The position numbers and the translations under genes were made by a program. Shown here one piece after another: positions 7,972 through 36,548 of a stretch of DNA of 46,465 nucleotides; within the stretch, counting starts at the first letter, position 1, and each line of letters begins with the position of its first letter. Below the pieces are notes generated by a model, which saw only the letters and a list, made by a program, of their open reading frames with translations, was not told where the DNA came from and did not search any database. Location: the IMG/VR virus record IMGVR_UViG_2061766007_001087, one strand, 5' to 3'. This stretch comes from an uncultured virus (IMG/VR IMGVR_UViG_2061766007_001087). Lineage: Duplodnaviria; Heunggongvirae; Uroviricota; Caudoviricetes; Schitoviridae.

Positions 7972-8215
7972 ATGCGTGACTTCATATTTGATAATTTTGA
8001 GGAGGAAGAAAAAGATGCTCTCCTCAATAATGTTTCAGTTGTTAAACCAACTGANNNNNNNNNNNNNNNNNNNTGAAGAAAAATATGTTGAATCAGTCAG
8101 TTTGGATAAACTAACTGACGAACAGCAAGACAAACTTTTCACCGTGTTAGGTGAGGGTTTGAATAAGATTCTCAAGGGTCTCGCCAGTTTTGACGATGAC
8201 GATATTCCATTCTAA
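7972..8215 (+). CDS. Small acidic early protein with SSB-Ct-like tail (FDDDDIPF)
   Basis: AGGAG SD then ATG at 7972 (MRDFIFDNFEEEEKDALLNN...). Joins across an N-run to ...KGLASFDDDDIPF*. Confidence 0.75.
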
Positions 8216-8263
8216 ATGTAGCAGGCATCGGTATATCCGTGTAAGTCCTGCTACATTTTTTTT
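8214..8263 (+). repeat. UAAGY-bulged hairpin copy 1 (terminator-like)
   Basis: AAATGTAGCAGG-CA-t-CGG-tatat-CCG-TG-TAAGT-CCTGCTACATTT followed by a T-run. Confidence 0.8.
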
Positions 8264-8329
8264 AATCTTTTGGTAAGTAAATAGTAGTAAGGCTAACATC
8301 ATGCTTGATACATTCTACTTACCATCAGC

Positions 8330-8347
8330 AATAAAATTTCTCGGTAG
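8330..8347 (+). promoter_or_regulatory. Phage promoter-like motif copy 2
   Basis: AATAAAATTTCTCGGTAG. Confidence 0.75.
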
Positions 8348-8672
8348 AAACAGGTCCTCGTTTAGCGACGCGAGAATAAATAATGTTGCCATCGTAGACA
8401 GTTTGAGTTGGCATTCTGATACAAAAATGCTAACACCGATTCCGCTACGGGATATTAGCGGACGTCGTTCGGTAACATTGCGACGTTATAGACAAAAGTT
8501 ACCTACCCTAGACAACGCTGAGGGCGAACTGCAACGTCTAGGTTAGTGAAAACCGGTTTTCCTGATGTTTCCGGATACAAAAAACGACGTCCCGCTCAGT
8601 TTAATGGCATTGCTGAGTGATTGAGCAAAAACCATTCGTCTTTGGCACCTAGACGTAAAAATAAGGTGTACC
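8348..8672 (+). ncRNA. Candidate large structured non-coding RNA (3' end probably in the N-run 8673-8739)
   Basis: No SD-led ORF. At least seven helices, a 10-bp long-range closing helix (8460-8469/8583-8592) and two tandem H-type pseudoknots. Flanked by promoter motifs at 8330 and 8757. Confidence 0.7.
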
Positions 8673-8756
8673 NNNNNNNNNNNNNNNNNNNNNNNNNNNN
8701 NNNNNNNNNNNNNNNNNNNNNNNNNNNNNNNNNNNNNNNTTCATTACTTGAGAGAA

Positions 8757-8774
8757 AATAAACTTTCTTCATAG
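8757..8774 (+). promoter_or_regulatory. Phage promoter-like motif copy 3
   Basis: AATAAACTTTCTTCATAG followed by the hairpin GAGGTTGCTA-GAGA-TAGCAACTTC. Confidence 0.65.
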
Positions 8775-8830
8775 GCGAGGTTGCTAGAGATAGCAACTTC
8801 ATATGTTAATTTATTTTTATGGAGGTCGCT

Positions 8831-9200
8831 ATGACTACAATTTATACATCTTATTACACAAATATACGTAATTTAAATGCTGACTACTATAGAGTCAGCA
8901 TCTCNNNNNNNNNNNNNNNNTGTAGTAGATGAAAGGGTGCAATTACTTGCACCACCTGCTCATACATTATGGGCACATAAGAATGGGCAGATAAATAATG
9001 CTCAATATACAGAACAGTACATTGAGCATTTAAATGCTCACCATGAACAAGTCATTGAAGTCATGAGACAAATATGGCGAAATGCACATGGTCGGAACAT
9101 TGTGCTCTTATGCTGGGAGAGCAAATCGAAATTCTGCCACCGTCACCTGTTTGCTGATTGGTTCTATCGGCAAACAGGATACCGAATTGAGGAACTGTAA
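8831..9200 (+). CDS. DUF488-family protein
   Basis: GGAGG SD and ATG at 8831 (MTTIYTSYYTNIRNLNADYYRVSIS). Joins across the N-run to LLAPP...IVLLCWESKSKFCHRHLFADW, carrying the LLCxE...CHR signature of DUF488. Confidence 0.8.
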
Positions 9201-9203
9201 GGT

Positions 9204-9236
9204 GGGTGCTAGTAGTGAAACATTCTACTAGCACTC
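9204..9236 (+). terminator. Strong 3' stem-loop after the DUF488 gene
   Basis: GGGTGCTAGTAG-tgaaacatt-CTACTAGCACTC. No U-tract. Confidence 0.5.
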
Positions 9237-9239
9237 AAC

Positions 9240-9257
9240 AATAAAATTTCTCAGTAG
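9240..9257 (+). promoter_or_regulatory. Phage promoter-like motif copy 4
   Basis: AATAAAATTTCTCAGTAG. Confidence 0.75.
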
Positions 9258-9314
9258 TGCAAGATAGTTCTCGCACTTCAACATTTATTCACTAACAGCC
9301 ATAGGGAGGCTATC

Positions 9315-9521
9315 ATGAAATTTATCATCACTTTTCAAATTGCTGATGACTTTGCTGAACAGATTTCTTACCACAGCGTAGTCTGTGATGAAGAAGAAGT
9401 AAATTCTGTTCAGCAAAAGATGATGAGCGATTATGCTCCATTCATCGAGGTTCTGTCTGTTACCCCATACGAGGGTCCAGACGACAGTGATTATGAAGAC
9501 GACGAAGCAATCCCGTTCTAA
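9315..9521 (+). CDS. Small acidic early protein with SSB-Ct-like tail (EDDEAIPF)
   Basis: 68 aa, GGGAGG SD, ends DDSDYEDDEAIPF*. Confidence 0.8.
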   Translation: MKFIITFQIADDFAEQISYHSVVCDEEEVNSVQQKMMSDYAPFIEVLSVTPYEGPDDSDYEDDEAIPF

Positions 9522-9530
9522 GTCGTCTTC

Positions 9531-9563
9531 TGCAGGCATTGTTCCATACATGTAAGTCCTGCA
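9531..9563 (+). repeat. UAAGY-bulged hairpin copy 2
   Basis: TGCAGG-CA-t-TGT-tccat-ACA-TG-TAAGT-CCTGCA. Confidence 0.8.
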
Positions 9564-9591
9564 TTGGTTTAATCTAATTAGGAGAAAAAAG

Positions 9592-9795
9592 ATGATTAGG
9601 TTCGAAAGTGCCCTCATTGTTCTGGGCAACAAACAAGTTAAAGTGCAGTTATGCCGTAATGTGGCATATCTGCAATATTCCAAAGATATTGTAGAAGAAG
9701 TCAATTTCGTAGAACTGGCTAAACTTCTACAGAATGTACAGGTTCTCAAGCACTCCAGAAGTTTCTGGAAAGTGCTTCAGAGCAGAGTACAGTAA
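9592..9795 (+). CDS. Hypothetical early protein
   Basis: 67 aa, AGGAG SD. Confidence 0.7.
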   Translation: MIRFESALIVLGNKQVKVQLCRNVAYLQYSKDIVEEVNFVELAKLLQNVQVLKHSRSFWKVLQSRVQ

Positions 9796-9797
9796 AT

Positions 9798-9836
9798 CCA
9801 GCAGGCACTTGTCGTGAGACATATAAGCCCTGCTGG
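9798..9836 (+). repeat. UAAGY-bulged hairpin copy 3
   Basis: CCAGCAGG-CAct-TGTC-gtga-GACA-ta-TAAGC-CCTGCTGG, followed by TACATTTTTT. Confidence 0.75.
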
Positions 9837-9891
9837 TACATTTTTTAAGTATGCAGTAGTTAGAATAGATACGCTCTGCATACATGGAAAG

Positions 9892-9909
9892 AATAAAATT
9901 TCTCCATAG
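9892..9909 (+). promoter_or_regulatory. Phage promoter-like motif copy 5
   Basis: AATAAAATTTCTCCATAG followed by the hairpin ACGGTTGTT...AGCAACCGT. Confidence 0.75.
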
Positions 9910-9972
9910 AAACGGTTGTTCACGATAGCAACCGTAATCCAACTTGTCACTTGCCTTAGGAGGGCTACAATT

Positions 9973-10307
9973 ATGTTAAACTCTATCCACGTTTTCGATA
10001 TTTTCTTCATCAACGCAGTTTCTGAGCAGGCTGAGGCTTGCGAACTTGAAACNNNNNNNNNNNNNNNNNNNNNNNNNNNNNNNNNNNAGACCTCTCTGAT
10101 GAAATTATTCGTGCTGAAACGGCTCGCATTGTTCGTCATGCAGTTTCTAGACTGCGTTCGACTGAGCAGAAAGTCATTATTGGCACACTCGCTGGTCTCC
10201 CACCAGAAGAGATTGCCCGTAGATGTGACATATCTACTGAGCGGGCAAAAATCGTCTGGCGGGAGGCCACGCTCAAGTTGAGGAGAGAACTTGAGCCGTT
10301 GCTCTAA
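9973..10307 (+). CDS. Small protein with a sigma70 region-4-like HTH domain
   Basis: ATG at 9973 with AGGAGG SD. After the N-run a different frame reads DLSDEIIRAETARIVRHAVSRLRSTEQKVIIGTLAGLPPEEIARRCDISTERAKIVWREATLKLRRELEPLL*, which fits the Sigma70_r4 pattern. Confidence 0.75.
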
Positions 10308-10313
10308 ATCTCC

Positions 10314-10345
10314 AGCAGGCATTGTGCAAACATGTAAGTCCTGCT
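10314..10345 (+). repeat. UAAGY-bulged hairpin copy 4
   Basis: AGCAGG-CA-t-TGT-gcaa-ACA-TG-TAAGT-CCTGCT. Confidence 0.8.
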
Positions 10346-10355
10346 TAAACCCAAC

Positions 10356-10373
10356 AATAAAACTTCTCAATAG
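10356..10373 (+). promoter_or_regulatory. Phage promoter-like motif copy 6
   Basis: AATAAAACTTCTCAATAG. Confidence 0.7.
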
Positions 10374-10402
10374 TATTTAACAATCTGCCATAGGAGGCAC
10401 TT

Positions 10403-10657
10403 ATGAACAACTTTTCAAATACTGCATTTACTTCTTTCGACCGTGACCCAGTAAAGGTTGAGGTTCACGCCCTCTTTGAAATAAGAGGTTGTGATGACGA
10501 AATGATTGAAACTTATTTCGTCACAACCCACATGGTAGTGGGTACCTGCTGGGACGACGAAGTACCACAGTTCCTTGAAGTTCTCCGTAAGAGAGTCGAA
10601 GAGGAATACAGGCACTACTACGCCTTCCTGCTGGAACATTGGGTGTTTCCAGCATAA
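10403..10657 (+). CDS. Hypothetical early protein
   Basis: 84 aa, AGGAGG SD, forms its own promoter-terminator unit. Confidence 0.8.
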   Translation: MNNFSNTAFTSFDRDPVKVEVHALFEIRGCDDEMIETYFVTTHMVVGTCWDDEVPQFLEVLRKRVEEEYRHYYAFLLEHWVFPA

Positions 10658-10674
10658 TAGAAAATAGCCCAGGC

Positions 10675-10713
10675 GGGAGTACTAGTCTTATGACTGGTGC
10701 TCCCTTGTTTTTT
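10675..10713 (+). terminator. Rho-independent terminator
   Basis: GGGAGTACTAGTC-ttat-GACTGGTGCTCCC-TTGTTTTTT. Confidence 0.8.
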
Positions 10714-10741
10714 CAAGTAAATGGAAAGAAAGTACATTTAC

Positions 10742-10759
10742 AATAAAATTTCTTCATAG
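10742..10759 (+). promoter_or_regulatory. Phage promoter-like motif copy 7
   Basis: AATAAAATTTCTTCATAG. Confidence 0.75.
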
Positions 10760-10789
10760 TATCAACTTAGCCTGTAGGAGGGCACAATT

Positions 10790-10999
10790 ATGAACGAATC
10801 AATTCAGTTTAAAGTTACTTCTATCGTTTACTTTAACGAAAAGTACAATAAGGGAGGAGAGTCCGAGACTTATGTTTTGCGTGGGTTCTGCACTCCCGAA
10901 GAAGTCACGAAAATCAGAGACTATGTCCTCGCTGAGAACTGGCGACAGTTCAGATACGAGGCAAAAGACATCAAGATTGTAAAAGTCGAGATTGTCTAA
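10790..10999 (+). CDS. Hypothetical early protein
   Basis: 69 aa, AGGAGG SD. Confidence 0.8.
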   Translation: MNESIQFKVTSIVYFNEKYNKGGESETYVLRGFCTPEEVTKIRDYVLAENWRQFRYEAKDIKIVKVEIV

Positions 11000-11004
11000 C
11001 CTCG

Positions 11005-11040
11005 GGCAGGTGGTGCCAGTGTGTACTGCCTGCCTTTTTT
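11005..11040 (+). terminator. Rho-independent terminator
   Basis: GGCAGGTGGTGC-cagtgt-GTACTGCCTGCC-TTTTTT. Confidence 0.8.
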
Positions 11041-11045
11041 CAGCG

Positions 11046-11063
11046 AATAAAATTTCTCGATAG
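11046..11063 (+). promoter_or_regulatory. Phage promoter-like motif copy 8
   Basis: AATAAAATTTCTCGATAG. Confidence 0.75.
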
Positions 11064-11098
11064 ACCAACATTTATCAACTAACCAAAGGAGTTCTATT

Positions 11099-11242
11099 AT
11101 GAAACATATTTACATAATCACTGGTCGTCATTACGGAGAGTCCGAGTACTCATACGTAATGTACGAAGGTACATACCTCGAGGCATGCTCATACGCTGAG
11201 TGGGAGTTCGACGATGTAAAAGCGGTTGAACTACTCATCTAA
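11099..11242 (+). CDS. 47-aa acidic early protein
   Basis: AAGGAG SD; MKHIYIITGRHYGESEYSYVMYEGTYLEACSYAEWEFDDVKAVELLI*. Too short for the ORF track. Confidence 0.75.
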   Translation: MKHIYIITGRHYGESEYSYVMYEGTYLEACSYAEWEFDDVKAVELLI

Positions 11243-11311
11243 CAACCCACAGGGGCAGTAGTGTATGCTATCTGCCCCTTTAGCAACATTTTTTTAACCA
11301 AGGAGAATAGT

Positions 11312-11473
11312 ATGAACAAATATCGTGTTATTTATTTTAATTACGACTTCGACCTCGAAGAAGCATATATCTTCGGGGATACCGAAGAAGAAGCCCTGTA
11401 TAATGCAGGGATTCCAGAAACCGAGGTGTTCTCTATTGAGGAACTCGATGAAGACGAAGACGAGGAGGATTAA
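11312..11473 (+). CDS. 53-aa very acidic early protein
   Basis: AAGGAG SD; MNKYRVIYFNYDFDLEEAY...EELDEDEDEED*; followed by the hairpin GGGAAGTC-GAAA-GGCTTCCC. Confidence 0.8.
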   Translation: MNKYRVIYFNYDFDLEEAYIFGDTEEEALYNAGIPETEVFSIEELDEDEDEED

Positions 11474-11521
11474 TCGGTGGGAAGTCGAAAGGCTTCCCTT
11501 GTTTCTGCAAATCGGGAAACA

Positions 11522-11539
11522 AATAAAATTTCTCGATAG
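11522..11539 (+). promoter_or_regulatory. Phage promoter-like motif copy 9
   Basis: AATAAAATTTCTCGATAG followed by the hairpin GAGTGA-tagat-TCACTC. Confidence 0.75.
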
Positions 11540-11597
11540 AGTGATAGATTCACTCAAGTATTCAACATTCATCAACCAACCAAAAGGAGAAAAAAAA

Positions 11598-11800
11598 ATG
11601 ATGAACACTGAAAATACCCGCACTCTGTATACTGTCACTGGACTTGACACCGAGGGTTATCCAGACGCTTACAACGTTTGGGCAAATGACCCAGCCGACG
11701 CCANNNNNNNNNNNNNNNNNNNNNNNNNNNNNNNNNNNNNNNNNNNNNNNNNNNNNNNNNNNNNNNNNNNNNNNNNNNNNNNNNNNNNNNNNNNNNNNNN
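11598..11800 (+). CDS. Hypothetical early protein (3' end in N-run)
   Basis: AAGGAG SD; MMNTENTRTLYTVTGLDTEGYPDAYNVWANDPADA... Confidence 0.65.
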
Positions 11801-11847
11801 CAGGAGGCTCCCCAATTTTTTTCCCTAGTGCAAAGAGAGAAAGACTA

Positions 11848-11865
11848 AATAAAATTTCTCAATAG
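11848..11865 (+). promoter_or_regulatory. Phage promoter-like motif copy 10
   Basis: AATAAAATTTCTCAATAG followed by the hairpin ACGTTGCTA-cttga-TAGCAGCGT. Confidence 0.75.
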
Positions 11866-11917
11866 AAACGTTGCTACTTGATAGCAGCGTACATCCACCC
11901 TTCAACAACGGAGTTCC

Positions 11918-12163
11918 ATGATGAAAATTCTCTACACAATTTCATGCCCTACATTCATTTTCCGTATCCTTCTTACCAAGGAAAACGGGCAGTTCGTTTA
12001 CTCAACTGAAGACGGGCAGACATACNNNNNNNNNNNNNNNNNNNAGGAAGATTTTATCCTCCTTCTTGCACTCTTCGGAAAAGCCTATTCCGGTGCAGGC
12101 TATTACGAGAATTACGGAAATTCAACCAGAATTAAGTTCAATATCACAAAGGAGACTCTATGA
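11918..12163 (+). CDS. Hypothetical early protein
   Basis: 81 aa, GGAG SD. Confidence 0.7.
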   Translation: MMKILYTISCPTFIFRILLTKENGQFVYSTEDGQTYXXXXXXXEDFILLLALFGKAYSGAGYYENYGNSTRIKFNITKETL

Positions 12164-12432
12164 TGAACAGAAACAATTTAATCCGCTACCACGTTGTATT
12201 CGACGCAACCGAGGAAAGGCATAACTGCTACTTTCCAGTCGACTTCCTTATTGAAAGGACAGAACAAGGTACTATCATTTACGACACGCTTGAGAAACCG
12301 GTTCTAATCACCAAAACAGCAATTACCGAAGAGTATCTCAAACTCGTGGCTAACTACCTGTTTTGCAGAGAATTTAAACGAACTTACAACATGATTCCAA
12401 AAATCATAAAGTTCGACTGTTACGATGAATAA
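12160..12432 (+). CDS. Hypothetical early protein
   Basis: 90 aa, AAGGAG SD, ATGA overlap with the upstream gene. Confidence 0.75.
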   Translation: MMNRNNLIRYHVVFDATEERHNCYFPVDFLIERTEQGTIIYDTLEKPVLITKTAITEEYLKLVANYLFCREFKRTYNMIPKIIKFDCYDE

Positions 12433-12570
12433 TCTATACGGCAGAGACAGGAGGCTCNNNNNNNNNNNNNNNNNNNNNNNNNNNNNNNNNNNNNNNNNNN
12501 NNNNNNNNNNNNNNNNNNNNNNNNNNNNNNNNNNNNNNNNNNNNNNNNNNNNNNNNNNNNNNNNNNNNNN

Positions 12571-12774
12571 GACATTGTCGTAATCCCAGTAATGGACCCA
12601 GGAACTTATGACGAGGTGTACTGGGTTGTGTTTCCTACAGAACTCTACGGTCTGGTAACTGAACGCTACGACCCATCTGACCTTCTTACCCTTAAGGGAT
12701 TCATCAAGGCTTACCTGTACGGTGAATATCCAGATGTCCTCTGGATTGCCCTAGACGAAGAGGCAAACGACTAA
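12571..12774 (+). CDS. Hypothetical early protein (start probably in N-run)
   Basis: Frame is open from the edge of the N-run (DIVVIPVMDPGTYDEV...) and followed by a hairpin. Confidence 0.6.
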   Translation, partial: DIVVIPVMDPGTYDEVYWVVFPTELYGLVTERYDPSDLLTLKGFIKAYLYGEYPDVLWIALDEEAND

Positions 12775-12825
12775 TAACCAACCCCAGGGCAGGAGAAATC
12801 CTGTCCTTTAACATTGGAGAAAACA

Positions 12826-13017
12826 ATGAAAGCAACAATTTTAACAATTCTTTTTATCTTTGGTTCAGTCCTCTATATGGCTCATTACGCTTTAAGCCTT
12901 CCAGAAGTTGAGTTTAGTTACTCAACCAAAAAGTGTGTAAAAGTGATAGACGCAGACGGTGGAGTACACTCATGTAAGCATCTGCCAAAAAAGTTCTATC
13001 ACGTCTGGGTTAAGTAA
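12826..13017 (+). CDS. Small membrane-anchored protein
   Basis: GGAG SD; N-terminal hydrophobic helix MKATILTILFIFGSVLYMAHYAL; Cys pair in the soluble part. Confidence 0.7.
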   Translation: MKATILTILFIFGSVLYMAHYALSLPEVEFSYSTKKCVKVIDADGGVHSCKHLPKKFYHVWVK

Positions 13018-13082
13018 ATACAAGGAGGGTACTCATTGAGTACTCTCTNNNNNNNNNNNNNNNNNNNNNNNNNNNNNNNGCA

Positions 13083-13100
13083 AATAAAATTTCTAGATAG
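13083..13100 (+). promoter_or_regulatory. Phage promoter-like motif copy 11 (upstream of the gp2-like and RNAP II genes)
   Basis: AATAAAATTTCTAGATAG, overlapping the hairpin TAGATAGAT-agtaa-ATCTATCTA. Confidence 0.7.
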
Positions 13101-13149
13101 ATAGTAAATCTATCTACGTTTAACTTTTCACAATATGAGGATAAATTCT

Positions 13150-13620
13150 ATGAACGTATTTACTAATGCTTCTAACAATAATAACAAGGGTAACTTTATT
13201 GATGGTATGCTGTATGTCAAAGACTTGACTACTGGTGAGACTCGTTGCATTGGCTCAGTCTATACCCGTTCTCCAGTTGCTGAAGTTACTGCTTTGTTAA
13301 ACGCAGTTAACGCACACCCAGATAAACTCGGATTAGTGTTCGAAGACCGTAGAAGTAACATCAGTGCTAACTCCTTTCTGGGTCAGGTGATTGCTTCTGC
13401 TAAACCACAGCAGGTAGCACAGCCACAGTATGTCGTAGCACCACAGCCAGTAATTCAGCCATCAGCACAGACTGTTATGCCAATGGTACAGGTACAGCAA
13501 CAGCCTATGCCACAGGCTGTAGTACCACCACAGCAGAATGCTGGAATGCCACTGGGTGGTCAGCCAGTTCAGCAACAGCAGGTGCTTCAGCCTGTAACTC
13601 CTGATGAAGTTCCATTCTAA
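13150..13620 (+). CDS. Candidate N4 gp2/Drc-like ssDNA-binding protein with Q/P-rich linker and DEVPF tail
   Basis: GAGG SD before ATG at 13150. N-rich start, a short beta-rich domain, a long Q/P/V linker and the ending TPDEVPF*. Located upstream of RNAP II like gp2/Drc. Homology is inferred. Confidence 0.5.
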   Translation: MNVFTNASNNNNKGNFIDGMLYVKDLTTGETRCIGSVYTRSPVAEVTALLNAVNAHPDKLGLVFEDRRSNISANSFLGQVIASAKPQQVAQPQYVVAPQPVIQPSAQTVMPMVQVQQQPMPQAVVPPQQNAGMPLGGQPVQQQQVLQPVTPDEVPF

Positions 13621-14233: not shown

Positions 14234-15115
14234 ATGAAACAGCAAGAAATGGAAATGCTCTATGCAGAAAATAACATGACTCATCTTCTGGATACTTATA
14301 TTTCAGATGAGTACATGGATTATTTAATACAGCGATTAAAGATAGTAATGGTTGCTGATTCTGAGAAACCTTTTAAGAGAGAGTGCATAGATTTAATTAT
14401 CAAAAACTGCAATCCAAGAAAGGTATTTAAGAAAATGATTACTCCATTTATCTTAAAAGATAAAGTAATCCTCCAAGAGATAGTAAGTAAAGTATTTCCA
14501 ATCTTTGGTAATGCTACTACCAAGCATAGACAAGGTATATGTGTAGACTGTTTTCTTACTGCTCTATTAGATGGTAATTACTTTAGCATTACTCAGACTT
14601 CAGAAGAGTACTTTGTTACTACTATTATTGATTTTACAAGTCTCAGAACTGCTGCACAGAATATGGGATTTGTACTCCCTTCTATTGAACCACTGGAACC
14701 AGTAGATAACAGACACATTGGATATAAAACATTCAGTGAATCTATTATTTGTGGTTCCAAGAATAATCCATTGGATTATGAAAAATGCTTTTCTCATATC
14801 AATAGAGAGAATAGAACAAAACTATGCTGGGATGATAGAGTACTGAAACTTTCTCCTCTTACATTTGNNNNNNNNNNNNNNNNNNNNNNNNNNNNNNNNN
14901 NNNNNNNNNNNNNNNNNNNNNNATTAATAATAGATTTAAACAGTTTGAATTACTAAAACAGAGTATTCCAGATAAGGTAAGTAAACTGGACGGAAATGAA
15001 TTTTACATTGCACACAAATATGATAAACGAGGCAGGTGCTACTGCAAAGCACATGAGTTTNNNNNNNNNNNNNNNNNNNNNNNNNNNNNNNNNNNNNNNN
15101 NNNNNNNNNNNNNNN
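14234..15115 (+). CDS. RNA polymerase II subunit 1 (N4 gp15-like)
   Basis: MKQQEMEMLY start and LPSIEPLEPV. After an N-run a different frame gives HKYDKRGRCYC (DxRGR motif). End lies in an N-run. Confidence 0.85.
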
Positions 15116-15119
15116 GAAA

Positions 15120-16380
15120 ATGATTAATTTTGAACCAATCGAATGGGCATTTATTGAGACTGCTAATCAGTTAGGTTTTGATAAGAAACCTTTTCAGGAG
15201 AGAATAAAGATAGGTTCAGATATATTTGAGGAAATTAAGAAATACGGAGTAGAGAAAACTTATTTCAAGTATAACCCAGATGAACCTCAGTTATTTGCAA
15301 GAGCATTAATCGGATTGGGAGATATTGCAAATGGTAAGCCTACCAATATGCTTGTAGGACTAGATGTTACTTCATCCGGACCACAAAATGGTGAAGTAGG
15401 TTCAAGAGATTCTACAGGTCTTGCAATTACTGGTGCAATAGATTTAATAGTAAATGGAGTTACTATAGTACCAGATGTATATACTGAAATAGAGAATAAA
15501 CTCAGACCAGTAGGTGTACCAAAACTAAGTAGAAAAATGGTAAAAGAAGCAGTTATTCCATATGTATATGGCTCTACTGATGCACCGAAATCTTTGTTTG
15601 GTAAGTTCTATAAACACTTTAAGGAGGCATTCTTCCAGACAATTCCTGGTTCAGATTCGTTTAAAAACTTATTAATAGATGCATGGCAGGACGACTGTAT
15701 GCTCTATAAATGGGAATTACCAGACGGATTTGTTGCTACTACTGTACCAGAAAAGAATATAGAATTCCGGTTACAGTTATTAGGAAATCACTCATATACA
15801 TATGTATCCAAGGAACCATCTCCATTGGAGAAAGGAGACCTGCATACAAAGGCATTATCAGCAAATGTATTTCACGCATTTGACGGATTTATGCTTAGAG
15901 AGGTACATCGTATANNNNNNNNNNNNNNNNNNNNNNNNNNNNNNNNNNNNNNNNNNNNNNNNNNNNNNNNNNNNNNNNNNNNNNNNNNNNNNNNNNNNNN
16001 NNAGGTTCCAATGGAAGAGCAGAACATCTGGAACAGTTGTACTGGAAATTCAAATTCTTTAGTTTTGAAATTCTGGAAGTTATCCAGTTAAATATAGGAA
16101 ATATCTCAGAAGAGTATATCAATGTATGCTTACAGCAAATTGAATATCTGTTATCTAAGNNNNNNNNNNNNNNNNATTCATGATGAGTTTATGTGTTCTC
16201 CACTTAACTGTAATGTTATGAAGCAGGTATACAATAATCTTCTGGGTGCTTTGTATTGTTCTGACTGGTTCCGTATAGTAATTAACGAATTGAGAAATGA
16301 CAATTTAGCAGATAAGTATGTAGAACCAATAAACTGGGATATTTATAACAAAATCATAANNNNNNNNNNNNNNNNNNNNN
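15120..16380 (+). CDS. RNA polymerase II subunit 2 (N4 gp16-like)
   Basis: ANQLGFDK..F.ERI, motif A GLDVTSSGPQ, motif B RKMVKEAVIPYVYGS, ANVFHAFDG and motif C IHDEF (about 16176). End lies in an N-run. Confidence 0.92.
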
Positions 16381-25209: not shown

Positions 25210-26425
25210 NNNNNNNNNNNNNNNNNNNNNNNNNNNNNNNNNNNNNNNNNNNNNNNNNNNNNNNNNNTTTCCAGTAAATCAGAGATTATTCTTACTGGTA
25301 CTCCAGGTACTGGTAAGACCTTCTTTCTGGCAGAGTTCTTAAAATCCTGCTCAGAGGATATTAAATCTTTAAGAGAGATAGGTCTTAATGTAAAGATTAA
25401 TTCTTTGATTTGTACTGCTACTACTAATAAAGCCAGTAATCTCTTAAGAAAGGCTAAAACTATTTATACACTTCTTGGTTTAAAACCAGTAATTGATAAG
25501 ACTACTGGTATGACCTATCTGGAGAAGTGGCAGAATGTAGATAGAAAGGATACTCTTTATATCATAGATGAAGCCAGTATGATTAGCAGTGACTTGTATA
25601 AATATATCCAGGAAGAAATAAAGAAAGGTAATAAGTTTATGTATGTAGGAGATATTAATCAGTTACCACCGGTAAATGATAATAACTTCTCTGTATTTAA
25701 TTTACCGAATCTGGAAGTACTGGAGTTNNNNNNNNNNNNNNNNNNNNNCTCTGCTGATTTACAGGGTCTTATTATTGATATAAGAGATAATATGAAATGT
25801 CCTAATGCTGTTATTAGTCTGTTAAATAATTTAAAGGATTCTGAGCATATTCATATATTGAAAGGTGAGGAAGATGTAAAACAGGTATTAGAGAATTTTA
25901 CTAATTATGATAAGTGCATAGCATATACCAATAAGAGAGTAAATAAGATTAATGGATATATGAGAGCACTTAGGAAAATGCCAAAGAACATTAGTTCAGG
26001 TGACCTGGTAGTAAGCAAGTCTTCTGTATGTAACACAGATAATGGTTTTAGACTGTGCTGTGAAGATGTACTTACTGTTAAGTATATAAAGCAGGATAGT
26101 CGTAATCCAGGTGCATATCTTATTTCATTTTTGAATGTTCCAGGAGAGTTCCACGGGTTTAATGATGTATATAAGTATGATACAGAATGTAAGAGAATTT
26201 ATGCAGAATGTAAAANNNNNNNNNNCTAATTTTAGTGATATGTATCTGAAATTGAAGTTCTCCTATGCAAGTACTGTACACAGTGCTCAGGGGAGTACCT
26301 ATAATAAGGTATTTGTAGATTTAACAGATATTAACTCCTGCAATGATATAGAGACATTTATCAGATTGATTTATGTTGCTATAAGCAGAGCCAAAGATGA
26401 GGTGTATATTTATTATGGAGACTAG
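25210..26425 (+). CDS. Dda/RecD-like SF1 DNA helicase (start in N-run)
   Basis: GTPGTGKT, TATTNKA, IIDEASMI, VGDINQLPPV, YASTVHSAQGST, YVAISRA. Confidence 0.92.
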
Positions 26426-28262
26426 GTATTTACTGATTAAAGAGTCATTAATTATTACAGAGAACATTAGATACTATTATTTTGATAATGGTGTTAGTCC
26501 AGATGTACCAGTAGTACCATTAAAATATGTACAAGATAAATTTAAAGCAAATGAAGCAAAGATGTATTTGCAGGATTTATTAAAAGACCTGCATAGATTA
26601 GGTGCTACTAAGTTACTGGTATGTGATGCAAACTATTTTAAATTAATGACTGGTCAGAAAACTATAGAATTTTCCTATGGGCAGGAGTTCTCCTGTAAAA
26701 TAGGTAACTATAGTTTTAAAATAATACCTGGTATAAACTATAAAGCAATTTCATATAATCCAGAATTACTTAACAAGTTACAGTTATCTATTGATAAATT
26801 TAATGATGTTAATCAATCATTTGCTAATATAACCAGAATAGGAGTTACTGATGTTAGAAAATCTCTGTTATCTCTGCATAATTATAGTATGCTTACCGTT
26901 GATATTGAAACTACTGGGTTATGTTTTTATCTTCATTCTCTCTATAGTATTAGTTTCTCGTGGAGTAACAGANNNNNNNNNNNNNNNNNNNNNNAAGGAC
27001 AAGAAGAAGTTTTAAAAAATTTCTTTGATACTTATCAAGGTAAACTGGTATTCCATAATTCCTCTTTTGATATAAAGTTTCTTATTTATAAGTTGTACAT
27101 GAAAGACATTAATGACCAGGAAGGATTACTTACTGGTCTACATACTCTCTGTAGGAATTTTGGAGATACTAAGATTATTGCATATTTAGCATTAAATTCT
27201 ACTGGTAAACCAGATTATGGATTAAAGCATCTGGCATTACCTTATGTAGGTAAATATGCATTAGAAGATATAAATGATGTTACTAAGGTGCCTGTAGATG
27301 ATTTACTAAATTATAATGTTACAGATACTTGTGCTACCTATTGGGTATATGAGAAATATTATCCAAAGATGGTAGCAGACAATCAGGAGAATATATACAA
27401 TACTTTATTTTTACCTAGTCAGAAAGTACTAATTCAGACTGAATTAACTGGAGTAAGACTAAATCCAACAAAAGTAAAAGATTTTAAACAGAGTGTACAA
27501 GATGCAATTACTGAAGCGGAGAACTATTTAAATAGTNNNNNNNNNNNNNNNNNNNNNNNNNNNNNNNNAGAACTAGATAAAATTAACAGTAAATTAAAGA
27601 CTAAAGTAAAGACACTGGAAGATATTAATTTTAAGATTAATTTGAACTCACACTCTCAGATTGCTCATTTGCTTTATGAAGTAATGCTTCTACCAGTAAT
27701 TGACTATACAGATTCAGGTAAGCCTTCCAGTAGTAAAGATACTATAGAGAAGTTATTAGAAAAGAATACTAATCCAGAATATACAGATATATTAAAGAAC
27801 TTGGTAGAACTGCAAAAGGCTTCTAAAATCTTTTCGGATTTCATCCCTACTATGGAGAATGCTTTCAATGAAAGAATTTTCGGTAGTTTTGTTCTAGGTG
27901 GCACTATATCTGGTAGGTTATCCAGTAAGGAACCAAATCTACAGAATATGCCTTCTACTGGTACTAGTTATGCTAAAGCATTTAAAGCCTGTTTTGATTA
28001 TAGAGATGGGTGGATTATGGTAGGCAGTGATTTTAATGCACTGGAAGACCATATTAATGCATTATTAACTAAAGACCCTAATAAACTGGCTGTATATACA
28101 GACGGGTACGATTCCCATTGTATTAGAGCATTCAATTATTACGGTGACCAGATGCCAGATATAAGACTAGCAGTAGAAGGAGATGAGTGCTGGGTAGAAG
28201 AAGATAAAAATGGACACAAAGAGTATTTTTGTAAACACGGAGACGAGGTATTTAAAGTATGA
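26415..28262 (+). CDS. DNA polymerase family A, N-terminal piece (3'-5' exonuclease, thumb, motif A)
   Basis: VDIETTGL, FHNSSFD, YNVTD, GTISGRLSSKEPNLQN, motif A GSDFNALED, YDSHCIRA. True TGA stop, not next to Ns. Confidence 0.92.
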   Translation: METRYLLIKESLIITENIRYYYFDNGVSPDVPVVPLKYVQDKFKANEAKMYLQDLLKDLHRLGATKLLVCDANYFKLMTGQKTIEFSYGQEFSCKIGNYSFKIIPGINYKAISYNPELLNKLQLSIDKFNDVNQSFANITRIGVTDVRKSLLSLHNYSMLTVDIETTGLCFYLHSLYSISFSWSNRXXXXXXXXGQEEVLKNFFDTYQGKLVFHNSSFDIKFLIYKLYMKDINDQEGLLTGLHTLCRNFGDTKIIAYLALNSTGKPDYGLKHLALPYVGKYALEDINDVTKVPVDDLLNYNVTDTCATYWVYEKYYPKMVADNQENIYNTLFLPSQKVLIQTELTGVRLNPTKVKDFKQSVQDAITEAENYLNSXXXXXXXXXXXELDKINSKLKTKVKTLEDINFKINLNSHSQIAHLLYEVMLLPVIDYTDSGKPSSSKDTIEKLLEKNTNPEYTDILKNLVELQKASKIFSDFIPTMENAFNERIFGSFVLGGTISGRLSSKEPNLQNMPSTGTSYAKAFKACFDYRDGWIMVGSDFNALEDHINALLTKDPNKLAVYTDGYDSHCIRAFNYYGDQMPDIRLAVEGDECWVEEDKNGHKEYFCKHGDEVFKV

Positions 28263-28769: not shown

Positions 28770-29117
28770 TATGGAGAGTCAAATGAAGTATGAAGATGAA
28801 CGTGGTATGGTTAATTCTGTAAATGTATATACAACAGAAGAAACTGAATACTTTGATAAGTCTGCCCAGATAGTTATTAATATGAATNNNNNNNNNNNNN
28901 NNNNNNNNNNNNNNNNNNNNACATAAGTATACGAAACTATAATGAAAATTTTGATCAGTTTTATAGTACAGTAGGTGATATACAAAATAGTAGAATAAAA
29001 GATTTGGTACACGAGTATGACAGAGAAAGTGAGAAGAGACGTAACAGTACAACAGTTCAATGTGCAGATGATAAACTCAATAAAGAAGAAGTATCCAGCA
29101 CTGAGACAGGCAAGTAA
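28770..29117 (+). CDS. Second insert ORF (or C-terminal part of the first), overlapping the pol-C start
   Basis: MESQMKYEDERG... then after Ns ISIRNYNENFDQFYSTVGDIQNSRIKDLVHEY...ETGK*. Confidence 0.45.
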
Positions 29118-29742
29118 AGCTCCTACCTTTGCTCTTACTTATGCTGGTACTGCACATACTCTGGTTAATAACTTAGGTATGGAAGAAGAACAAGCCAAAA
29201 AAATAGAAGAAAAATATCATGAAATGTATAAAGTATCTGATGAGTGGGTTGCTGAAAAGATACAGCAGGCTACTATAGATGGATACGTTACCTGTGCTTT
29301 TGGTTTAAGGTTACGTACTCCCCTATTAAAGGCTACTGTACTCAATACTAAAAACACTCCTAAAGAGGCTATAAAGGAGGGTAGAAGTGCAGGTAATGCA
29401 CTGGGTCAGTCTTGGGGACTGTTAAACTGCAGAGCAGTAAATGAAGTAATGCAGCAGGTATGGAACAGTCCTTACAAGAATGATATTAAGCCAATAATGC
29501 AGATACATGATGCCAGTTATTATTTAGTAAAAGAAGATTTAGATGTTATCTGTTACTTAAATAATATACTGGTTAAAGCAATGGAATGGCAGGAAGATCC
29601 TGCTATTGCACATGACCAGGTAAAGTTAGGTGGTGACCTGGATATATATTATCCTGACTGGGCACATCCTATTACAATACCACATAACATTACACCAGAA
29701 GATTTATTTACTTTTTTAAAGGAAAAAACAAATGGACATTGA
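29017..29742 (+). CDS. DNA polymerase family A, C-terminal piece (motifs B and C)
   Basis: Motif B RQASKAPTFALTYAG, GYVTCAFGLRLR, AGNALGQS, motif C QIHDASY. Confidence 0.92.
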   Translation: MTEKVRRDVTVQQFNVQMINSIKKKYPALRQASKAPTFALTYAGTAHTLVNNLGMEEEQAKKIEEKYHEMYKVSDEWVAEKIQQATIDGYVTCAFGLRLRTPLLKATVLNTKNTPKEAIKEGRSAGNALGQSWGLLNCRAVNEVMQQVWNSPYKNDIKPIMQIHDASYYLVKEDLDVICYLNNILVKAMEWQEDPAIAHDQVKLGGDLDIYYPDWAHPITIPHNITPEDLFTFLKEKTNGH

Positions 29743-34335: not shown

Positions 34336-35034
34336 TAGAGAATAGTGTATTAATTTGTGGTAGGTCAGGTACAGGAAAGAGTTTTTCCTTAAGAAATTTA
34401 AGAAATCCAGAAGGAGTAATGTACTTAAATTGCGAGGGTAAACCGCTTCCTTTTCCTAACAAGTTTCAGGTATATGATGTATCTGAACCACAACAGGTAT
34501 ATGAGGCATTGGTAGCAGTAAATGATATGGATAACATACATACTGTAGTCATTGACTCTGTTACTTATTTAATGGAAATGTTTGAAACACAGATTGTAAA
34601 TAAGAGTAGTAATACCCAGAAAGCATGGGGTGATTATGNNNNNNNNNNNNNNNNNNNNNNNTAGAGCCTGTAAGAAAAATGTTATTATCCTTTCTCATAT
34701 AACCAGTTTCTATAATGGAGATACCATGATAAATGAAACTAGAGCATCAGTGAAAGGAAGCGTAGGTAAAGGTAACGGATTTGAAAGTTATTTTACTACT
34801 GTAATATATTCTAAGATTGTAGGACTGGATAAAGTAACCGAGAACGAAGATTTACATATAACCAAGGCAGAATCGAAGAAGAACTTTAAACATGTATTTC
34901 AGGTAGACCATACCAAGGACGATACACATGAGTCCATTAAAGTACCTCCTGGAATATTTGGAGAAGATGTAACTTATATTGATAATGATATTCAAATTGT
35001 TTTAGATAGATTGGAGAAATACTATGCAGATTGA
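34330..35034 (+). CDS. Sak4-like AAA ATPase (N4 gp44-like)
   Basis: NSVLICGRSGTGKSFSLRNL, YLNCEGKPLPF, VVIDSVTYLMEMFE, AWGDY, IDNDIQ. Start lies in an N-run. Confidence 0.88.
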
Positions 35035-35722
35035 TGCATTTAATACTACTGTACCAGCATGTGAAGAAGATAGAGCAGGTGCCAAGATACTGGATTCTGG
35101 CATTTATCAGGCAAACATTAAACTGGCTTATCTTGAGAATGTGGGACAGGCAGGTTCCAAGAAACTGATTATTCAGTATGCAGTAGAAGATGAAGGAGAT
35201 ACAGTTACTCTGAGAGATGAGGAAATTGTATTGAATAAGGAAGGAAAGAATACTTGTAAAGATGGTAAGAAACTACTTCCTGGTTTCCTGAAGATGAATG
35301 CTGTATGTGTATGTGCCAGTGGTGCAGACCTGGGTAAGCAGGCATTTGAAGAGAAGGATATAGAGGTATTTAAGCAGGGAGAAAAGGTAGTAGAGAAGAA
35401 ACTGGTTGCTACTACTCTGCTTAATAAGACTCTTCTTATTGGTGTACAGAAAGGCTTAATGTCCCGTAAGCAGAAGCAGGGTAATGAGTGGGTATCTACT
35501 GATAAGACTTTTATGGGTAACAGGATTGATAAGGCATTCTCCAGTGAAGGTAAGACTCATAAGGAGATACTTAACAAGGCAGAACCTTCCTTTATTAATA
35601 TCTGGAAAGAGAAGAATGAAGGTAAAGAAGGTAACTTTGTACCTACTGATGTTAAGCCTTGGATTACTCAAACAGGAAGTCCATTAAGTGGTAAACCAGC
35701 AAAGAGTATCTTTGCCAAGTAA
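35024..35722 (+). CDS. ssb: Single-stranded DNA-binding protein (N4SSB/gp45-like)
   Basis: EEDR..ILDSGIY...IKLAY, LLPGF, NRIDKAF and basic/aromatic tail KSIFAK. Synteny after the Sak4-like gene. Confidence 0.8.
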   Translation: MQIDAFNTTVPACEEDRAGAKILDSGIYQANIKLAYLENVGQAGSKKLIIQYAVEDEGDTVTLRDEEIVLNKEGKNTCKDGKKLLPGFLKMNAVCVCASGADLGKQAFEEKDIEVFKQGEKVVEKKLVATTLLNKTLLIGVQKGLMSRKQKQGNEWVSTDKTFMGNRIDKAFSSEGKTHKEILNKAEPSFINIWKEKNEGKEGNFVPTDVKPWITQTGSPLSGKPAKSIFAK

Positions 35723-36350: not shown

Positions 36351-36548
36351 AATGGTAATTTCACTGTTACTCTTGGTTCAGTTGATAAAAAGGAAGAACC
36401 AAAGAAAGAAGAACCAGTAGTAGAAGAGAAGAAAGCAGAGGAACCAAAGAAGGAAGCTCCTGCTAATATCTTTGTTACTAATAAATCTGCTCAGAATATC
36501 TTTGGTCAGAAAGTAACTGTTGGAGATGCTGTTAAGAATGAAGCTTAA
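36351..36548 (+). CDS. 3' end of a hypothetical protein with K/E/P-rich tail
   Basis: NGNFTVTLGSVDKKEEPKKEEP...; start lies in the N-run. Confidence 0.5.
   Translation, partial: NGNFTVTLGSVDKKEEPKKEEPVVEEKKAEEPKKEAPANIFVTNKSAQNIFGQKVTVGDAVKNEA

Follow-up and report, generated by a model that had tools for sequence, protein, structure and literature searches.

Candidate mimicry of a bacterial interaction hub: SSB-type C-terminal tips on three unrelated small proteins of an uncultured N4-like phage

Why would a phage place the tail end of SSB, the bacterial protein that binds single-stranded DNA, on three small proteins that are unrelated to one another? The question is raised by the IMG/VR record IMGVR_UViG_2061766007_001087, a stretch of 46,465 nucleotides (nt) that we analyzed at its full length and refer to as the window; family and profile matches identify it as part of the genome of an N4-like (Schitoviridae) phage. 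The C-terminus of bacterial SSB (...DDDIPF) is a hub peptide that is read by exonuclease I (ExoI), RecQ, PriA, the DNA polymerase III (Pol III) subunit chi, RecO, RNase HI, DnaG and others. A preliminary description of the window proposed that the genes referred to here as P1, P2 and P3 end in ASFDDDDIPF, DYEDDEAIPF and VTPDEVPF, each followed by a stop codon, and these ends were indeed found where they had been placed. From their sequences, P1, P2 and P3 probably plug into the SSB interaction network of the host. The three genes and their parts, with lengths in amino acids (aa), are as follows.

7972..8215, plus strand: P1 gene, 84 aa, net charge -12, with AGGAG 7 nt before the ATG
8192..8212, plus strand: codons of the P1 tip DDDDIPF, then TAA
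9315..9521, plus strand: P2 gene, 68 aa, net charge -15, with GGGAGG 6 nt before the ATG
9498..9518, plus strand: codons of the P2 tip DDEAIPF
13150..13620, plus strand: P3 gene, 156 aa, net charge 0, ending in PDEVPF, with GAGGA 8 nt upstream of the start
13150..13404, plus strand: P3 N-terminal domain, residues 1-85, nearly invariant in homologues
13405..13593, plus strand: P3 linker, residues 86-148, Q/P/V-rich, variable, rich in insertions and deletions, modeled with low confidence
13594..13620, plus strand: P3 tip VTPDEVPF and stop

The tips stand out against the background of the window. Among 304 mechanically called open reading frames (ORFs) of at least 30 aa on both strands, a Pro-aromatic end (P[FWY]) was found in exactly three, and these are P1, P2 and P3. 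Ends of the form [DE]x[IV]PF were observed three times versus 0.007 expected from composition (Poisson P(>=3) = 6e-8), and no internal copy of this pentapeptide occurs in the 21,835 residues of the ORF set. The equivalent DNA pattern gave three matches versus 0.22 expected, and three or more were reached in 0 of 100 shuffles. A chance origin of the three tips is excluded. Further tip-bearing ORFs could hide in the bases masked as N, which make up about 12% of the window (5,478 of 46,465).

The tips share features with the bacterial peptide. Phe stands at the very C-terminus with a free carboxylate in all three window proteins, and positions -1 and -2 are taken by Pro and by an aliphatic residue, respectively (IPF, IPF and VPF in the window; IPF, LPF or VPF in homologues). 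An acidic run lies before this hydrophobic end, DDDD in P1 and EDDE-A in P2, and in part also in P3 (DE). The P1 tip contains the E. coli hexapeptide DDDIPF exactly, which is described in the available text of two sources as the docking site of many genome-maintenance enzymes (PMC5872125, PMC10018359).

The genes themselves appear sound. All three are preceded by a Shine-Dalgarno sequence at proper spacing, and they are not adjacent to one another. The P1 stretch is 244 nt long, which is not a multiple of 3, and an N run inside it breaks the frame; we took the gene as intact because its two readable halves both recur without change in the database protein P0010 (84 aa), which reads through them in a single frame. 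N runs in the window do not always preserve length or frame, so that genes across them look split or shifted, P1 being one example. For P3 the first in-frame ATG lies at 13135, but the start at 13150 fits better because GAGGA lies 8 nt upstream of it and nine of nine homologues start there.

Conservation provides a second line of evidence. The preliminary description had made its proposal depend on tails that are kept among homologues, and the Pro-Phe end is retained in 28 of the 29 family sequences (two of three for P1, four of four for P2 and 22 of 22 for P3, window sequences included). In each of the three families the tip forms a conserved island behind a variable linker rich in insertions and deletions. 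Homologues were confined to metagenome protein collections. One P2 homologue and one P3 homologue were each placed on one contig of 16,545 nt, and co-occurrence of the tip genes in relatives is only hinted at by this equal length.

The P1 family is the smallest, with two true homologues in a scan of 1.84 billion representative proteins. P1 opens with an acidic/aromatic segment that is conserved; a variable linker separates this from a helical segment, also conserved, after which comes the tip. The middle part varies among homologues with many insertions and deletions. One homologue ends in DDDYLPF; in the other (P0017) a Trp is added to give DDDDDIPFW. Residues 1-15 of P1 (7972-8016), MRDFIFDNFEEEEKD, form an acidic/aromatic peptide that is invariant in both homologues and may be a second docking motif.

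P2 has three non-identical homologues at 71-84% identity. All four sequences of the family end in DDE[AD]IPF, while the preceding 12 residues vary and include insertions and deletions. In the P2 model (mean predicted local distance difference test score, pLDDT, 78) residues 1-52 are predicted as beta-beta-alpha-beta with pLDDT near 88, and residues 53-68 form an acidic tail of low confidence (pLDDT 51-61) that ends in DDEAIPF.

The P3 family is the largest, with nine homologues at 72-97% identity and twelve further cluster members (22 sequences with that of the window). All 22 end in [VI]PF and 21 of the 22 in P-D-x-[VI]-P-F; in the variant P0028 the preceding segment is rewritten and the end LDVPF is retained. 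Mean pairwise identity per column is 0.9-1.0 in the N-terminal domain and 0.17-0.55, with many gaps, in the linker. In the last seven columns four are invariant (P, D, P and F) and the remaining three reach 0.40-0.47. In the alignment this is the pattern expected for a short linear motif. The N-terminal domain is predicted as beta-beta-alpha-beta-alpha in a model of low overall confidence (mean pLDDT 54), and residues 88-143 mostly have pLDDT below 50. The linker of 63 residues holds 20 Q, 13 P and 10 V (counted in P0001). As modeled, P3 runs from domain through disordered linker to tip, which is how the tail of bacterial SSB is laid out, here on a body that is not an SSB.

The three proteins proved unrelated, as the preliminary description had held: hhalign detected no relation of P2 to P3, and its alignment of P2 with P1 covered only the seven tip residues. 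P2 and the P3 N-terminal domain share a beta-beta-alpha-beta start, and hhalign gave no support for the idea that they are paralogues. Searches with P1, P2 and P3 against Pfam, PHROGs, NCBIfam and PDB sequences returned no SSB, OB or other family match, and the profile of the N4-type phage SSB (gp45 family, PHROG 743) matched none of them. The earlier statement that P1 and P2 are too small for an OB fold plus linker is supported by the missing SSB and OB family matches and by the 52-residue domain modeled for P2, and no DNA-binding body was detected in either protein. Foldseek against PDB gave nothing significant (best E 0.17 for P3 and 0.14 for P2), nor did searches of BFVD (best E 0.014) or the wide VIA search (best Z 4.3) with the P3 and P2 models; no OB fold was among the structure matches listed for these two. 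In the ESM Atlas all matches to the P3 N-terminal domain scored below 0.9, and P1 gave no usable match.

The phage has an SSB of its own.

35024-35722, plus strand: N4-type SSB, PHROG 743 'single strand DNA binding protein', E 4.9e-30

Its C-terminus is KSIFAK, in agreement with the earlier claim that the replicative SSB of the phage does not carry a host-type tip. The next ORF after it, of which a C-terminal piece is readable at 36351-36548 on the plus strand, contains ANIF and QNIF in a tail rich in Lys, Glu and Pro; the piece sits after a RusA-like part and a large N run, and the likeness of these tripeptides to KSIFAK is weak evidence.

Counting acidic-x-PF ends across the Schitoviridae had been suggested as a further check. 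We scanned 21 whole records, N4 included, from phages of Escherichia, Salmonella, Klebsiella, Kosakonia, Pectobacterium, Acinetobacter, Pseudomonas, Stenotrophomonas, Achromobacter, Vibrio, Rhizobium, Agrobacterium and Dinoroseobacter with a DNA pattern for [DE]-x-[ILVMF]-P-F-stop. Five matches were obtained versus nine for the reversed control pattern. Only one of the five coincides with the end of a real ORF, which in Dinoroseobacter phage vB_DshP-R7L encodes gp24, a protein of 190 aa with no assigned function (PHROG 29075; record 10582-11154, L023:946-1518) that ends in NIDDIPF. The gp24 gene sits between an AAA ATPase gene and an N4 gp25-like gene. Thus such an end does occur elsewhere in the family, but in none of the other 20 of the 21 genomes, and the same scan found no ORF with an SSB-type tip in N4. 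Because one tipped ORF was found in 21 other Schitoviridae genomes, the triple tip set is, by this sequence scan, lineage-specific and no family trait. Among 50,697 records of isolated phages, megablast, blastn and tblastn searches with the region, P2 and P3 gave no match, and profile searches with the three family alignments confirmed nothing in IMG/VR, JGI metagenomes or GTDB genomes.

Taken together, we consider it somewhat probable that P1, P2 and P3 are independent carriers of the SSB-tip motif, with its acidic residues, its hydrophobic-Pro-Phe end and its free carboxyl terminus. On balance we also lean toward the view that a short motif has come, by convergence, to mimic the host SSB tip and that its targets are the enzymes that bind SSB. 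Several observations weigh against this interpretation. The P3 tip is only weakly acidic: it holds D and E in the window, and four homologues, P0006-P0009, have one D (PDSIPF, PDAIPF). The terminal carboxylate is read by SSB-tip pockets, as in the structures of ExoI and chi, and the IPFW end of P0017 would bury it. With 3, 4 and 22 sequences at 63-97% identity, the families compared are small and their members close, which makes for a modest test of conservation. The motif is near-absent in other Schitoviridae (one real ORF in 21 genomes) and is dispensable for the N4-type life cycle. Finally, the consensus used for comparison is that of bacterial SSB, from which the SSB tip of the host and the pockets of its partners may differ.

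If the tips do mimic host SSB, they would enter, early in infection, the pockets in which the SSB-interacting enzymes of the host read the SSB tail. P1 and P2, which are small, very acidic and without a detectable DNA-binding body, would act as soluble competitors that uncouple tip-reading enzymes from SSB-coated DNA. P3 has a folded domain followed by a long flexible linker and the tip, which is the SSB tail layout, and it would tether a tip-reading enzyme to the partner of its N-terminal domain; it could in this way supply in trans the tail that is absent from the phage SSB. The putative targets are exonuclease I, RecQ, PriA, Pol III chi and RNase HI. N4 gp8 targets the clamp loader, which would make chi attractive. 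ExoI would be attractive because phages counter it and because a phage protein tipped with FDDDIPF has been tied to ExoI-controlled activation of the DRT10 defence. In the available part of one study, gp58 of phage T5 is described as shielding 3' ends from ExoI (PMC12483538). An extended scheme is possible, though we regard it as doubtful: three carriers evolved by convergence, namely two acidic decoys (P1 and P2) that draw enzymes such as exonuclease I, RecQ, PriA or chi away from host SSB and a tethered adaptor (P3) that supplies a host-type tail in trans, would together take over the hub, so that host enzymes are kept off host DNA and re-used on phage DNA.

The surroundings of the three genes bear on the alternatives. 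P1, P2 and P3 lie on the plus strand between the end of the terminase gene and the RNAPII genes, and from this position alone they would be early genes. The other genes of the window include the following.

14234-16091: T7-type RNAPII subunits, split, by Pfam/PHROG-type matches
Elsewhere in the window: replication-type gene set of ThyX, family A DNA polymerase, Dda-like helicase, primase and PD-(D/E)XK exonuclease
Minus strand: virion RNA polymerase (vRNAP), in pieces
Left end of the window, minus strand: terminase and structural genes

The first alternative is a docking code internal to the phage, in which the tips would be read by phage-encoded partners such as the DNA polymerase, the Dda-like helicase, the primase, the PD-(D/E)XK exonuclease, RNAPII or the vRNAP. 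Such a code has precedents. The acidic, Phe-terminated tail of T7 gp2.5 and the acidic C-terminus of T4 gp32 recruit the polymerase and helicase of their phages, so that recruitment of phage replisome proteins by such tails is established for T7 and T4. The proteins described here resemble them in the use of an acidic tail that recruits proteins in T7 and T4 and, in the case of gp2.5, in the Phe end. Moreover, a full replication set (DNA polymerase A, helicase, primase and exonuclease) that such tails could address is present in the window, and the RNAPII genes begin shortly downstream of P1, P2 and P3. However, the tails of gp2.5 and gp32 sit on phage SSBs and recruit phage proteins, whereas here the phage SSB, the natural carrier of an internal code, ends in KSIFAK without such a tail and the motif is the bacterial one, matched down to the Pro-Phe end. 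ANIF and QNIF in the ORF piece after the SSB hint, weakly, that the code of the phage itself is [SN]IF. In addition, twenty other Schitoviridae with homologous replication genes have no such ORF. We therefore consider an internal code unlikely.

A second alternative would place the function in the bodies, with P1 and P2 as acidic DNA mimics or other small inhibitors in host takeover, P3 as an early protein unrelated to them, and the tips as minor or as serving some other purpose, for example stability or turnover. The net charges of -12 on 84 residues (P1) and -15 on 68 residues (P2) suit this idea, and the weak, non-significant fold neighbors of P2 include two acidic phage inhibitors, T7 Gp2 (E 0.98) and the uracil-DNA glycosylase inhibitor p56 (E 1.0). 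Neither P1 nor P2 gave a family match to acidic DNA mimics of the Ocr, ArdA or p56 type. Small acidic proteins are abundant in the early region, and two other ORFs there (11312-11473 and 12592-12774, plus strand), both very acidic, end in DEDEDEED and DEEAND, plain acidic runs without Pro-Phe, which likewise speaks for the bodies. A further point in favor is the DdrB protein of Deinococcus radiodurans, whose SSB-like motif is reported, in the part of the paper available, to be dispensable for radioresistance (PMC3834827), and this is a caution for any reading of the tips. Function in the bodies would nevertheless leave unexplained the threefold recurrence of an SSB-type end on unrelated proteins, and likewise the fact that each tail is conserved best in its final residues. 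For these reasons we judge it decidedly unlikely.

It is a little less probable still that the tips act on early transcription at the vRNAP, either by competing with host SSB, as a shut-off when early proteins have built up, or by replacing it as cofactor. The genes are in an early-region position, and a 2003 PNAS study reportedly mapped a determinant of template recycling to the C-terminal residues of E. coli SSB (EcoSSB). Available excerpts describe EcoSSB as the cofactor of N4 vRNAP in activation at promoter hairpins and in template recycling (PMC4496689, PMC13492108). However, no direct interaction between purified EcoSSB and vRNAP was detected, as far as the accessible text of one of these studies goes (PMC4496689). 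P1 and P2 show no DNA-binding body, and an early product would come too late to serve the first round of early transcription. Additionally, N4 and 19 of the 20 other scanned Schitoviridae, all of them dependent on a vRNAP, are without such an ORF. The cofactor role that the preliminary description had offered as one possibility is thus weak on three of these counts: the missing DNA-binding bodies, the timing and the lack of a detected EcoSSB-vRNAP interaction.

That P3 is a non-canonical single-stranded DNA (ssDNA)-binding protein, a second and host-compatible SSB of the phage, is very improbable: domain, Q/P-rich disordered linker and tip do follow the order of bacterial SSB, and an Enc34-type ssDNA-binding domain appeared among language-model neighbors (rank 28, score 0.82, below the noise bar), but no SSB or OB family match was obtained, the beta-beta-alpha-beta-alpha arrangement predicted in the low-confidence model is not a five-stranded OB barrel, and no OB fold was among the structure matches listed (best Z 4.3).

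How do these proteins compare with known users of the SSB tip? Their likeness to the bacterial SSB C-terminus lies in the position at the extreme end of the protein, the acidic run, the hydrophobic-Pro-Phe end and the flexible linker that precedes it. Bacterial SSB linkers are Q/P-rich, and so is that of P3. In contrast to bacterial SSB, the tip sits here on three bodies without an OB family match, and that of P3 has one or two acidic residues. Full-text searches gave no paper in which SSB-tip mimicry is ascribed to small phage proteins without an OB fold. As far as its available text goes, Bas52_0087 comes closest among published cases: this SSB-like phage protein contains OB folds, ends in an FDDDIPF tip and is needed for the activation of DRT10, and its authors propose interference with the processing of ssDNA in the host, including that by ExoI (bioRxiv 10.64898/2026.04.29.721553). 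Like Bas52_0087, P1, P2 and P3 are phage-encoded carriers of a conserved host-type SSB tip. Unlike that protein, which has two OB folds in the AlphaFold model of its authors, they have no detected OB fold, and here three carriers occur in one genome. For P3 the nearest architectural precedent is DdrB, which the excerpts at hand describe as a bacterial protein that anneals ssDNA (PMC3834827); in sequence the two are unrelated. Judged from sequence, what is new is a known hub peptide on new carriers, in triplicate.

The three genes belong to a phage with distant cultured relatives and a probable habitat in the ruminant gut. The nearest are Salmonella, Klebsiella and Acinetobacter N4-like phages, with about 40% identity in the DNA polymerase; the RNAPII subunit is at most 36% identical to that of Vibrio N4-like phages. 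G+C content is 34.7%, calculated on unmasked bases only. The family A DNA polymerase shows as two ORFs, 26397-28262 and 29017-29742, with an N run between 28262 and 29017. A 1.8-kb stretch of the region was found, whole or in part, in 20 sequencing-run rows from 14 studies, two of which rows may be the source; all 20 are labeled bovine or sheep gut metagenome, or bovine metagenome, and no RNA run was among the rows listed.

Between P2 and P3, an open frame at 10089-10307 (plus strand), with its N-terminal part masked, resembles the C-terminal region 4 of sigma-70 factors of the extracytoplasmic function type (TIGR02937 E 3e-06, 27 bits, below the cut-off of 42.9; Pfam Sigma70_r4 E 8e-04). The early region of this phage, which supplies RNA polymerases of its own, thus contains a sigma-like frame. 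The stop codon of this frame, like those of P1 and P2, is followed by a copy of a conserved element of 30-31 nt, which consists of GCAGGCAT, a variable inner hairpin and GTAAGTCCTGC, and of which no copy is expected by chance.

8221..8251, plus strand: hairpin copy 1, 6 nt after the P1 stop; the outer stem extends and a T run follows
9532..9562, plus strand: hairpin copy 2, 10 nt after the P2 stop
10315-10344, plus strand: hairpin copy 3, after the stop of the sigma-like ORF

Each copy begins 6-10 nt past a stop codon, and copy 1 looks like a terminator. Possible roles of the elements are those of a vRNAP terminator, an RNA 3' hairpin or an early promoter; N4 early promoters number three, as do these elements.

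The presence of three independent carriers in one phage suggests strong selection on this route. Work on ExoI and on SSB-like triggers of reverse-transcriptase defence, in the portions available, points to where a phenotype may lie (bioRxiv 10.64898/2026.04.29.721553, PMC12483538). The SSB tip, the principal docking peptide in the genome maintenance of bacteria, is also described in available excerpts as being pursued as an antibiotic target (PMC5872125, PMC10143822). Small proteins that present the SSB tip without a DNA-binding body would, if our interpretation is true, be ready-made probes and inhibitors of the hub. Were takeover of the hub by all three proteins also to hold, it would be a case of multi-gene short-linear-motif mimicry in a phage, of a kind known from eukaryotic viruses. 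Overall, if the mimicry is real, it would mean that phages rewire the replication and repair of their hosts by imitation of a short motif.

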